Positions 53,801 to 56,800 of a stretch of DNA of 64,000 nucleotides are shown here, piece by piece. Source of the stretch: Escherichia coli (lineage in GTDB: Bacteria > Pseudomonadota > Gammaproteobacteria > Enterobacterales > Enterobacteriaceae). The stretch's first letter is position 1. Every line of letters begins with the position of its first letter. The stretch is from NCBI RefSeq assembly GCF_003991155.1, contig NZ_CP031293.1. One strand, 5' to 3'. The position numbers are program-made.

Positions 53801-56800
53801 ACGACTTCCGTCGGGTGCAGGAAAATCTGATTGGTCATCTGGTGACTCAGAAAAGGCTAAAACTGCCGCCCACGCTATTTATCGCGACGCTGGAAGAAGA
53901 GTTAGAGGTCATCTCGGTGTGTAATCTCTCCGGTGAAGTGTGCAAAGAGACGCTGGGAACACGCAAACGGACGCATTTAGCCTCAAATCTTGCGGAATTC
54001 CTTAATCAACTTAAGCCTCTTCTGTAATCCAAATACCCCATCTTGTTGTGAGAGATCTCTTACAGACTCTGTAGGAGATCGCCAGGAAATAAGCGAATAC
54101 TTAAAAAGATAAGAATCGTTATTTTCATTTAAAATCAATATATTGCTTGTCAATTCTTAACTTTCATATGAAATTTTCCTTAAGGCATTGTCTGTAAGCG
54201 CCTTGTAAGACTTCGCGAAAAAGACGATTCTATCTTCGTCGACAGGGAGTCAGACAACGAAGTGAACATCAGGATGATGACACTTCTGAAGGACACACCA
54301 GGATGGTGTTTCAGGGAAAGGCTTCTGGATGAAGCGAAGAGGATGACGCAGGACGCGTTAAAGGACACCTCCAGGATGGAGAATGAGAACCGGTCAGGAT
54401 GATTCGGTGGGTCAGGAAGGCCAGGGACACTTCAGGATGAAGTATCACATCGGGGTGGTGTGAGCAGGAAGCAATAGTTCAGGATGAACGATTGGCCGCA
54501 AGGCCAGAGGAAAAGTTGTCAAGGATGAGCAGGGAGCAACAAAAGTAGCTGGAATGCTGCGAAACGAACCGGGAGCACTGTGAATACAGTGCTCCCTTTT
54601 TTTATTCCTGCTATCCTTCGCGGCAGTTTTTCTTATTGAGGTTGCTTTATGACCACTCATGACCGCGTTCGTTTCCAGTTGCAGGCGCTTGAAGCGTTAC
54701 TGCGTGAACATCAGCACTGGCGAAACGATGAACCCCAGCCGCATCAATTTAATAGTACCCAACCGTTCTTTATGGACACCATGGAACCACTGGAGTGGTT
54801 GCAGTGGGTGCTGATCCCGCGAATGCACGATTTGTTAGAAAACAACCAGCCGTTACCGGGCGCTTTTGCCGTTGCTCCCTATTATGAAATGGCGCTGGCG
54901 ACGGACCACCCGCAACGCGCGCTTATTCTGGCTGAGCTGGAAAAACTGGATGCTCTTTTTGCGGATGATGCGAGCTAATGCTGGAAATACTCTATCAGGA
55001 TGAATGGCTGGTTGCGGTAAATAAACCCTCCGGCTGGCTGGTTCACCGCAGCTGGCTGGATCGCGACGAGAAAGTAGTGGTCATGCAAACCGTGCGTGAC
55101 CAGATAGGCCAGCATGTGTTTACTGCTCATCGTCTGGACCGACCCACTTCTGGTGTGTTGTTGATGGGATTATCCAGCGAGGCCGGACGGCTGCTGGCAC
55201 AACAGTTTGAACAGCACCAAATCCAGAAACGTTATCATGCGATTGTGCGCGGCTGGTTGATGGAAGAAGCGCTGCTGGATTATCCACTGGTGGAAGAACT
55301 GGACAAAATCGCTGATAAATTTGCCCGCGAAGATAAAGGCCCGCAGCCAGCAGTGACGCATTATCGCGGTCTGGCGACCGTAGAAATGCCGGTAGCGACC
55401 GGACGTTACCCGACCACGCGCTACGGCCTGGTGGAACTGGAGCCGAAAACCGGACGTAAGCACCAGCTCCGTCGCCATCTTGCCCATTTGCGTCACCCGA
55501 TTATTGGCGACAGCAAACATGGTGATTTACGCCAGAATCGCAGCGGTGCTGAACATTTTGGCCTTCAGCGGTTAATGCTGCATGCCAGTCAGTTGTCATT
55601 GACGCATCCTTTTACTGGCGAGCCACTGACTATTCACGCGGGCCTGGACGACACCTGGATGCAGGCGTTATCACAATTTGGCTGGCGGGGTCTGCTTCCT
55701 GAAAATGAAAGGGTTGAGTTCAGTGCGCCATCGGGTCAGGATGGAGAGATAAGTTCCTAATCCAGGGAGAAAACGGTATGGCGGAAATTGGTATTTTTGT
55801 CGGCACTATGTACGGAAATTCGCTGTTAGTGGCGGAAGAAGCGGAAGCAATTCTGACCGCGCAGGGCCACAAAGCAACGGTATTTGAAGATCCTGAATTA
55901 AGCGACTGGCTGCCCTATCAGGATAAGTATGTTCTGGTGGTTACGTCCACGACCGGGCAGGGCGACCTTCCTGATTGCATTGTGCCGCTCTTTCAGGGAA
56001 TTAAAGATACCCTGGGCTTCCAGCCGAATCTGCGTTATGGCGTGATTGCGCTCGGCGACAGTAGTTATGTGAATTTCTGCAATGGCGGCAAACAGTTCGA
56101 TGCCTTGTTGCAGGAACAGAGCGCTCAGCGAGTGGGAGAAATGCTGTTGATTGACGCCAGTGAGAACCCGGAACCGGAAACGGAATCAAATCCGTGGGTC
56201 GAACATTGGGGCACGCTGTTGTCCTGATATGTTCAGCGAGCGGTAAATGCCGTTTTAGCAGTGCTGAATCGAATCTTTTCAGGCAAATGCCAGTAAAAAC
56301 TGCTTCATAGTGCGGATTTTTACTGGCGTTTGCCTGGAGTCAAGCGATCCATTTCATACTCTTCTTTATTTCTTCGTTTTAACCCTTCCTTTCTTGTTCT
56401 TGTTTTCATTTCCGTGAAGTGGATTCCACCGTCCAGGGCTAATGCCAAAATCGGGCCTCATTGAACGCATTAATGTTGTGTTGTTGCACGGTGAGCCGCT
56501 ATGGCGCGCTTTTTATACTGCTATTGCCAGATATAAACACGCGCCGCATTCGGCGAACGACCTATAAAAACGGCAAAAAACACCCTACGTCACCTCTGAT
56601 TTCCTGGCGATGTCGCAGTCCAGAGTGAGCGTGGCTAACGCGAATTTTCAGGAGTGCAACAATGAGTTCTTTAAGTCAGGCTGCGAGCAGTGTGGAAAAA
56701 CGCACGAATGCTCGTTACTGGATAGTGGTGATGTTGTTTATCGTCACATCCTTCAACTACGGCGACCGCGCTACGCTCTCTATCGCCGGTTCGGAAATGG

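Follow-up and report, generated by a model that had tools for sequence, protein, structure and literature searches.

In Escherichia coli K-12, the binding and titration of CsrA by the csrB RNA, and the turnover of this RNA via CsrD and RNase E, are established (references cited in PMC4682653). The UvrY~P site of E. coli csrB was mapped by a DNase I footprint and a ChIP-exo peak with its centre at -183/-182, and the BarA dependence was shown by ChIP-PCR in a barA deletion (PMC4682653). The same study placed a putative IHF site in the stretch that separates the two UvrY crosslink zones, and IHF was needed for csrB expression (Zere et al., PMC4682653). The linkage of syd with csrB had already been noted by Kulkarni et al. 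2006. In Salmonella, the SirA site of csrB is described in the literature as the same 18-bp inverted repeat (IR), centred at -182/-181, with the same extra half-site, a putative IHF site and the syd/yqcC context.

E. coli CsrC (b4457) is also a CsrA-titrating GGA-repeat RNA that is activated by UvrY~P from a far-upstream site. However, CsrC is shorter (246 nt), lies at yihA/yihI and belongs to a different Rfam family from CsrB, and its IR is degenerate (TGTGAGACATTGCCGATA) and its expression IHF-independent (PMC4682653). In RsmB of Pectobacterium, CsrB1-4 of Vibrio and RsmX/Y/Z of Pseudomonas, a two-component system likewise acts through an 18-bp palindromic upstream box to switch on a decoy RNA with many GGA motifs, which sequesters CsrA/RsmA. 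The Vibrio VarA box, TGTG[AC]GAGATCTCT[TC]ACA, is the same sequence as the csrB operator (PMC6262261). These RNAs differ from CsrB in copy number, length and context, and none of them has been reported beside a sensor kinase gene.

Here we describe the csrB locus in a 64,000-nucleotide stretch of E. coli chromosomal DNA (contig NZ_CP031293.1, assembly GCF_003991155.1; the window), in which barA is also encoded. The region is almost certainly an ordinary E. coli csrB locus with its UvrY operator. The BarA phosphorelay, UvrY~P binding, IHF dependence and CsrA titration are taken from the literature.

Results

We observed that the CsrB model of Rfam (RF00018) matched positions 54247-54606 of the plus strand over its full length (model positions 1-356 of 356) and scored 382.9 bits (gathering score 71; E = 2.2e-111). 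When the curated K-12 gene (b4408, 369 nt) was aligned, it covered 54238-54606 between the same neighbours, syd and yqcC, with 367 of the 369 positions identical (99.5%), and this alignment sets the true 5' end at 54238. Only two positions differed from K-12. At 54289, CAGGA has become AAGGA with the GGA kept, while at 54577 a G-U pair in the terminator stem has become A-U. The intrinsic terminator (54571-54603, plus strand) consists of a perfect 11-bp stem at 54571-54596 with a 4-nt loop, followed by T7. In 33 species this stem was paired in 100% of cases, with compensatory changes at three pairs. The preliminary description had recognized csrB by its GGA repeats and a terminator, and had ended it at 54603; the identification is correct, and 54603 falls within the T-run of the terminator. 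The csrB gene is a 369-nt non-coding RNA at 54238-54606 (plus strand), as indicated by Rfam, the K-12 alignment and covariation, and from its 99.5% identity to the K-12 gene it is predicted to bind and titrate CsrA.

The csrB stretch was found in 5425 of 5426 complete E. coli genomes. We also noticed that the RefSeq/PGAP records of strains that are 100% identical carry no csrB feature. This is an annotation gap, and no evidence of absence.

The genes around csrB follow the K-12 layout. Upstream lies syd (53482-54027, plus strand), which encodes the SecY-interacting protein (NCBIfam NF003439) and was the conserved upstream neighbour of csrB in every locus compared. Downstream, yqcC-truC-yqcA (54649-56227, plus strand) starts 42 nt after the csrB terminator and forms the invariant part between csrB and barA, followed by gudP-gudX-gudD (56662-60717, plus strand), a variable insert between yqcA and barA that is absent or partial in several genera. 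The barA gene itself had been placed at 60948-63704, about 6 kb from csrB, and this was borne out. The minus-strand ORF, convergent with csrB, encodes 918 aa that match the BarA equivalog (NCBIfam NF008318) over residues 1-917, scoring 1623.9 bits where the cutoff is 890. BarA is the tripartite sensor kinase that phosphorylates UvrY, and the phosphorelay residues His302, Asp718 and His861 were in place within their motifs. A gap of 6,341 bp (about 6,342 bp in K-12) separates the barA stop from the csrB 3' end.

We compared this arrangement across genomes. The order was barA-[0 to 3 gud genes or other]-yqcA-truC-yqcC-csrB-syd-queF, and the block was collinear in 5413 of 5426 complete E. coli genomes. 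barA and csrB were linked in all 34 informative loci of Enterobacteriaceae and Pantoea, with a gap of 1.7-9.5 kb; outside Enterobacteriaceae, the linkage extends at least to Pantoea stewartii. The insert between barA and yqcA was found in several states (no gud genes, gudD only, gudDXP, or other genes). No csrB was found within 10 kb of barA in the more distant genera Yersinia, Rahnella, Rouxiella, Edwardsiella, Moritella and Alcanivorax, or in Ca. Pantoea persica. A search within 10 kb of 12 distant barA loci, by nhmmer with E. coli csrB and then at the Rfam gathering threshold, yielded no CsrB-family RNA. The other components, uvrY (1.995 Mb), csrC (4.051 Mb) and csrA (2.819 Mb), are unlinked to barA-csrB, with uvrY 0.9 Mb and csrC 1.1 Mb away from the csrB locus.

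The co-localisation of barA and csrB had been called striking in the preliminary description. The linkage is real and conserved, but what it represents is a single inherited syntenic block with uvrY and csrC outside it. The best explanation is one inherited gene order, ancestral to Enterobacteriaceae and Erwiniaceae. One could propose instead that the proximity is functionally selected, through local UvrY~P from the membrane-anchored BarA, a shared chromosomal domain or co-inheritance as a module. All informative Enterobacteriaceae loci, as well as Pantoea stewartii, retain the linkage although the insert was repeatedly remodelled, and such persistence across two families would also fit weak selection. 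In a 4.64-Mb genome, a given gene pair would lie within 6.3 kb by chance with a probability of 0.27%, or about 1% for the four kinase/regulator-by-target pairs. However, six Csr components allow 15 different pairs, which raises to about 4% the chance that some pair is this close, and all the linked cases are one inherited arrangement and hence not independent events. The distant genera listed above and Ca. Pantoea persica showed no csrB within 10 kb of barA, and the kinase is not among the published flanking genes of csrB/rsm in Vibrio, Pseudomonas and Legionella. Furthermore, the signal runs through diffusible UvrY, which is encoded 0.9 Mb off, and csrC, equally UvrY-dependent, is 1.1 Mb off. 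No discussion of barA-csrB linkage turned up in a literature search, and the paper on Vibrio csrB synteny (PMC6262261) makes no mention of the kinase. We therefore consider functional selection of the proximity to be very unlikely. The locus does not behave as a functionally coupled cluster, as all linked cases belong to a single inherited block of Enterobacteriaceae and Erwiniaceae, which does not include the direct interactor uvrY. We infer that the linkage is neutral; nothing found here shows a mechanistic or functional role of the proximity.

Between syd and csrB, we examined the palindrome that had been pointed out about 190 bp upstream of the RNA. The 18-bp IR TGTGAGAGATCTCTTACA (54047-54064) starts 191 bp upstream of the csrB +1 and spans -191 to -174, with its centre at 54055.5, that is -182.5 relative to +1 at 54238. 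It had been called near-perfect, and 8 of its 9 pairs are complementary. As a bare near-palindrome of 18 bp it carries no significance, and we rejected that argument: the window has 14 of these against about 6.6 expected. What gives it weight is that it is conserved and identical to the mapped site. It was letter for letter the sequence footprinted by Zere et al. 2015 (PMC4682653), and in the same position. It is also a perfect match to the UvrY/GacA consensus TGTRAGNNNNNNCTYACA, the sole one with fewer than two mismatches in the 64 kb. In 34 sequences from about 30 enterobacterial species, the IR positions were 80-100% identical, in comparison to 20-50% in the flanks. From its identity to the K-12 site, 54047-54064 is predicted to be bound by UvrY~P in this strain.

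Five bp downstream of the IR lies a third half-site, TGTAGGAGATC (54070-54080, plus strand; -168 to -158), which is the 'partially conserved additional sequence TGTAGGAGA' of Zere et al. (PMC4682653). It is kept as TGTRRGAGATC across genera, and in many of them exactly as TGTGAGAGATC. A second inverted repeat, with 13-nt arms (54054-54066 and 54068-54080) that are 92% complementary, is made up of this half-site and the right arm of the IR.

The palindrome lies directly after the syd stop (54027), 20 bp away, and the overlapping inverted repeat at 54054-54080 could give an RNA hairpin, so that one might read it as the terminator of syd, or else as the site of another regulator. No T-run follows it, however, and a terminator scan gave no plus-strand match there. 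Also against these readings stand the identity of TGTGAGAGATCTCTTACA to the UvrY~P DNase I footprint and ChIP-exo peak, and its match to the VarA and GacA boxes of the sRNA genes of Vibrio and Pseudomonas. The palindrome is, moreover, conserved as DNA sequence, beyond mere pairing potential. Both readings are highly improbable, and we take the palindrome to be the UvrY~P operator of csrB.

The operator region is that of K-12 csrB, with the same IR, third half-site, spacing (-183/-182) and neighbours syd and yqcC (Zere et al. 2015, PMC4682653). The 621-bp syd-yqcC spacer differs from K-12 by seven substitutions, the two within csrB (54289 and 54577) included. Four others, clustered at 54139-54151, fall in and next to a match to the IHF consensus, AATCAATATATTG (pattern WATCAANNNNTTR; 54133-54145, plus strand), located between operator and promoter at -105 to -93; the consensus core is kept. 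The WATCAANNNNTTR pattern by itself is not enriched, as the window has 5 occurrences where 2.7 are expected. Across genera, the TCA-N5-TTA core of the site is conserved, and 54133-54145 is a candidate for the published putative IHF site.

A scan of 54000-54700 with the sigma-70 consensus gave no promoter at its threshold, as is expected for an activator-dependent promoter, and the hexamers were therefore taken from conservation and from position relative to the K-12 5' end. Two blocks on the plus strand were near-invariant across genera. The block CTTGTAAGAC (54202-54211) contains the likely -35 element TTGTAA (54203-54208; -35 to -30), which matches TTGACA at four of six positions and lies at the correct distance from +1. 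The block GATTCTAT (54226-54233) contains the likely -10 element GATTCT (54226-54231; -12 to -7), and the spacer is 17 bp. In this footprint of about 30 species, the mapped IR is no better conserved than the third half-site or the blocks at -35 and -10.

The second ChIP-exo crosslink could be accounted for if CTTGTAAGAC were a UvrY half-site close to the promoter, and we evaluated this as well. TGTRAG is a rare motif, with 22 copies in the window, and four of them are found within 54047-54209. The csrC promoter, however, has no such TGTAAG-like -35 block, and according to Zere et al. the downstream crosslink sites do not preserve the IR (PMC4682653). The half-site idea was rejected and is an unsupported lead.

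The GGA motifs of the RNA were evaluated next to its fold. The preliminary description had spoken of dense GGA repeats, and the 369-nt RNA has 22 GGA, while 360-nt windows elsewhere on the plus strand had a mean of 4.8 (sd 2.4); all top-scoring windows overlapped csrB. Part of this excess arises because the RNA is G+A-rich in composition. Mononucleotide shuffles gave 11.9 +/- 2.7 GGA against 21 observed. As this enrichment is only about 1.8-fold over composition-matched shuffles, loop placement and conservation were used as a stronger argument than the count. GGA was present in loops both as predicted and in the consensus: 11 of the 12 hairpin loops of the Rfam consensus carry GGA, 19 of 21 GGA fall in its single-stranded positions, and an independent MFE fold left 17 of 22 unpaired. 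The probability of being unpaired was 0.81 for GGA bases and 0.44 over the whole RNA, and the MFE had a z of -4.3. Among homologs, GGA bases diverged by 0.07 in comparison to 0.22 elsewhere, with 20-28 GGA kept in each.

Covariation was assessed on 54 pairs in 33 species, with the structure being the Rfam consensus and not one derived blind. We observed that 94.4% of cells were paired (35-52% in slid controls). Double, compensatory changes occurred at 21 pairs, as compared to 5-13 in the slid controls, and none of 500 shuffles reached the observed value. The locus shows these features of the CsrB/RsmB family: a score over threshold, GGA (CAGGAUG-like) in loops and linkers, compensatory changes, non-coding status and a Rho-independent terminator.

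The preliminary description had named two findings that would speak against csrB, a lack of GGA in predicted loops, which the fold above contradicts, and a conserved protein-coding frame. We looked for such a frame across 34 sequences and found none; 33 of the 34 had stops in all six frames. Among the indels, 833 of 932 (89%) were not multiples of 3, and divergence by codon position (0.175, 0.197, 0.209) showed no periodicity. Two minus-strand ORFs do overlap the region (62 aa at 54180-54368 and 71 aa at 54445-54660), and one homolog, from Citrobacter sp. Cu233, is open through the whole of plus frame 0, but the chance that the GGA-rich stretch encodes a small protein is negligible, given the stops and frame-breaking indels, the divergence without a third-position pattern, a conservation that peaks at the loop GGA trinucleotides, the covarying hairpin pairs and the full-length covariance-model match.

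Discussion

The csrB RNA, the UvrY operator and BarA all belong to the textbook picture of the Csr global regulatory circuit, and are present here as standard E. coli alleles and already known, just as the preliminary description had it when it called this known biology. By analogy with the published circuit, BarA would phosphorylate UvrY in response to short-chain carboxylates. Phosphorylated UvrY would then bind the IR at 54047-54064, probably jointly with the adjacent third half-site, and IHF at about -100 may bend the DNA such that UvrY is brought to the promoter. Transcription of csrB would start at a weak sigma-70 promoter (TTGTAA-17-GATTCT) that needs the far-upstream activation. The resulting RNA is a chain of short hairpins with the GGA motifs displayed in loops and single-stranded linkers. 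It would bind many CsrA dimers, and CsrA would thereby be titrated away from its mRNA targets.

That the order barA-yqcA-truC-yqcC-csrB-syd is maintained by selection rather than inertia seems to us very unlikely, even though barA and csrB stayed within 10 kb of each other while the DNA between barA and yqcA was gained, lost or exchanged several times. If it were true, the position of csrB relative to the locus of the membrane-tethered BarA, or read-through from csrB into yqcC-truC-yqcA, could matter for signalling or co-inheritance.

The comparison has two by-products, the csrB promoter footprint over about 30 species, and the ancestral barA-csrB linkage, in which the gud operon is a variable insert. 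They open no new question. Both could, however, guide annotation, since csrB is missing as a feature from the RefSeq records of identical strains.

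Identification of csrB and its non-coding character

The window derives from an E. coli chromosome. Over the 751 bases around csrB, several complete genomes of E. coli show 100% identity; this stretch, lying between syd and yqcC, was found in 5425 of 5426 complete genomes of the species. When the whole window was scanned with Rfam 15, the CsrB model (RF00018) was matched over its full length at 54247-54606 (+), with a score of 382.9 bits (E = 2e-111; gathering score 71). The curated K-12 record carries csrB (b4408) as a 369-nt ncRNA with yqcC and syd on either side, and alignment of the K-12 syd-yqcC spacer placed this feature at 54238-54606. 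The identification of csrB was thus borne out by both the Rfam match and the annotated K-12 gene. Only seven substitutions separate the two spacers over 621 bp. Two are inside the RNA: at 54289 the K-12 CAGGA is AAGGA here (the GGA is kept), and at 54577, in the terminator stem, a G-U pair in K-12 is an A-U pair here. Four of the seven are packed into 13 bp (54139-54151), in and just after the IHF-consensus match, where the WATCAANNNNTTR core is kept in both alleles. Unlike the curated K-12 record, the PGAP-annotated, 100%-identical genomes (eight RefSeq records, H1-H8, e.g. NZ_CP029747.1) have no csrB ncRNA feature, and only syd and yqcC are listed under the match.

The window also holds a full-length GcvB sRNA at 35863-36068 (-) (RF00022, 199 bits, gathering score 42), and three tandem tRNA-Met (CAT) genes at 31243-31539 (-), with a 110-bp period and identical Rfam scores, that resemble the E. 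coli metZWV initiator-tRNA cluster.

The barA loci were fetched from one genome per species, and nhmmer found csrB homologs (67-99% identical to the window) in 34 of them. No conserved protein-coding frame was seen in any of the six frames across these 34 homologs, and nearly all species had stops in every frame. Internal indels were mostly not multiples of three (833/932), and divergence was flat by phase (0.175, 0.197 and 0.209). The GGA bases were three times more conserved than other csrB positions (divergence 0.07 vs 0.22), with 20-28 GGA per homolog. When the Rfam hairpins were placed on a 33-species alignment, standard pairs occupied 94.4% of cells, as against 35-52% with slid partners, and both-sided changes were seen at 21 pairs (slid controls, 5-13). 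The observed values were not reached in any of 500 shuffles. The csrB region is a structured non-coding RNA. At the usual yqcC-syd position, an uncultured Enterobacteriaceae MAG has csrB twice in tandem (15982-16336 and 16673-17022 (-) of its locus, L029).

The preliminary description had recognized csrB from its dense GGA repeats and terminator, and both are present: the 369-nt RNA has 22 GGA trinucleotides, and the intrinsic terminator consists of a perfect 11-bp stem (54571-54596 (+)) and then T7. The fold (-119.9 kcal/mol, z = -4.3) was better than all 100 dinucleotide shuffles. Elsewhere on the + strand, 360-nt windows contain 4.8 +/- 2.4 GGA, and all the top-scoring windows overlap csrB. 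This excess is partly compositional, since mononucleotide shuffles of the RNA still give 11.9 +/- 2.7; the decisive point is the placement of the GGA motifs and not their number. In the Rfam consensus structure GGA occurs in 11 of 12 hairpin loops, and 19 of 21 GGA are at single-stranded positions. In an independent thermodynamic fold, the mean unpaired probability of GGA bases was 0.81, as against 0.44 overall.

The UvrY operator and the csrB promoter

In the 18-bp palindrome (IR, TGTGAGAGATCTCTTACA) at 54047-54064, 8 of the 9 base pairs are complementary. Near-palindromes of such a length are not rare in themselves, as the window has 14 where about 6.6 are expected; however, no other site in the 64 kb comes within one mismatch of the UvrY/GacA consensus, TGTRAGNNNNNNCTYACA. 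In ChIP-exo and DNase I footprinting experiments, Zere et al. (PLoS One 2015, PMC4682653) located the site where phosphorylated UvrY binds, with its centre at -183/-182. That site and IR are identical in sequence, and IR is centred at -182.5 (+1 at 54238). Judged by sequence and position, the palindrome should be the UvrY site proposed earlier. The VarA box upstream of the Vibrio csrB genes is reported to be the same 18-mer as the E. coli IR (PMC6262261), and csrB and rsm genes are reported to have an 18-bp upstream site in general (PMC1488887).

Comparison of 34 csrB promoters from about 30 species revealed five islands that are conserved while the rest of the DNA drifts. The first is IR itself, with 80-100% identity per column. 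The second is a third half-site (54070-54080 (+)), conserved as TGTRRGAGATC, which Zere et al. had described as an additional, partially conserved sequence; with the right arm of IR it forms a second inverted repeat (54054-54066/54068-54080), and it may bind a second UvrY dimer or an oligomer. The third is a TCA-N5-TTA core inside the IHF-consensus match (54133-54145). The remaining two are CTTGTAAGAC (54202-54211) and GATTCTAT (54226-54233), the latter followed by the conserved 5' end, GTCGACAGGGAGT. As a consensus promoter scan at csrB found nothing at its threshold, we can only infer that these two contain the promoter hexamers, a putative -35 (TTGTAA) and -10 (GATTCT) with a 17-bp spacer, of a weak activator-dependent promoter.

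Two direct TGTAAG repeats, similar to UvrY half-sites, occur at 54193-54209 (-45 and -34), the second within the CTTGTAAGAC block. TGTRAG occurs only 22 times in 64 kb, with four of these in the 163 bp upstream of csrB; the TGTAAG element is not in the csrC promoter. Speculatively, these repeats might be tied to the promoter-proximal UvrY crosslink of Zere et al.

Proximity of barA and csrB

The 918-aa ORF at 60948-63704 (-) matched the NCBIfam BarA equivalog (1624 bits, cutoff 890), and the phosphorelay residues His302, Asp718 and His861 are present. The claim that barA lies about 6 kb from csrB was correct: the genes are convergent, with a gap of 6,341 bp occupied, as in K-12, by yqcC, truC, yqcA, gudP, gudX and gudD. 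This analysis established the identity and architecture of the RNA, the sequence, position and conservation of the operator, and the identity of BarA with its catalytic residues. In the pathway, BarA responds to acetate, formate and other carboxylates (PMC4682653). BarA autophosphorylates at His302, and the phosphate passes through Asp718 and His861 to UvrY Asp54; UvrY~P binds IR, and deletion of barA lowers in vivo binding about 35-fold (PMC4682653). IHF is needed for full binding, with an about 10-fold effect on the CsrB level; CsrB titrates CsrA, and its turnover goes through CsrD and RNase E (PMC4682653).

The segment from the palindrome to barA was one collinear piece in 5413 of 5426 complete E. 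coli genomes. Using tblastn of neighbour proteins, we observed a constant order, barA-variable slot-yqcA-truC-yqcC-csrB-syd-queF-ppnN, in every Enterobacteriaceae locus that had sufficient flanking sequence and in Pantoea stewartii, with barA-csrB gaps of 1.7 to 9.5 kb (median 7.3 kb). The variable slot (56228-60947 in the window; compared in L004, L022, L023, L021, L028 and L031) is empty in E. albertii, Pluralibacter gergoviae and strain RIT691 (gap 1.7-2.8 kb), holds gudD alone in Kluyvera, Shimwellia and Mangrovibacter, and gudDXP in most species, with other genes in some. In other Erwiniaceae the order is unchanged and yqcA falls right at the edge of the 10-kb flank, so csrB is expected just past the fetched DNA. 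In Yersinia nurmii, Rahnella, Rouxiella, Edwardsiella ictaluri, two Moritella, Alcanivorax and Ca. Pantoea persica, the DNA up to 10 kb from barA contained no CsrB-family RNA that scored at the Rfam threshold. In the last, the locus downstream of barA is rearranged, and two OmrA/B-family sRNA matches (17109-17216 and 18918-18994 (-) of L057) replace the gud/yqcA block. For the Vibrio, Pseudomonas and Legionella sRNAs, the kinase is not among the published flanking genes.

Several individual loci differed. E. coli 2016C-3878 matches the window at csrB with 100% identity; its gudD is interrupted by a Mu-like prophage (Mor, gp16 and Gam genes; 17682-22751 of L001), which lengthens the csrB-barA distance. 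In P. gergoviae an additional stretch of about 1 kb (14441-15497 of L022) separates yqcC from csrB, as against 40-70 bp in other genera. In E. coli CNR20180903 (NZ_OZ369161.1), a 4.28-Mb urinary isolate, the barA C-terminus is truncated and joined to the hofMNOP region (8999-11608 of L077), and the palindrome-to-barA query matches at the barA part only; this may be the one genome of 5426 without the csrB stretch, a possible natural barA/csrB loss. The yqcC start codon lies 42 nt past the csrB terminator end on the same strand (54606-54649), and every Enterobacteriaceae locus has this close csrB-yqcC-truC-yqcA packing; transcription might conceivably read through the terminator into yqcC-truC-yqcA.

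The preliminary description had called the co-localization striking. The proximity is real and conserved. In K-12 the barA/csrB block is at 2.915-2.925 Mb, a long way from uvrY (1.995 Mb), csrC (4.051 Mb) and csrA (2.819 Mb). For one given pair in a genome of 4.64 Mb, the chance of falling within 6.3 kb of each other is 0.27%, rising to about 1% over four kinase/regulator-by-target pairs and about 4% over 15 pairs among six Csr components. Weak selection for the linkage seems very improbable to us, and no cis effect is required, because the signal passes via a diffusible response regulator. Most simply, the proximity had a single origin and was inherited from then on. Together, these studies confirm the observation of csrB, its UvrY site and barA and support its interpretation as an already known feature; the promoter footprint, and the description of the barA-csrB block as an ancestral enterobacterial synteny with its variable gud insert, are the only additions.
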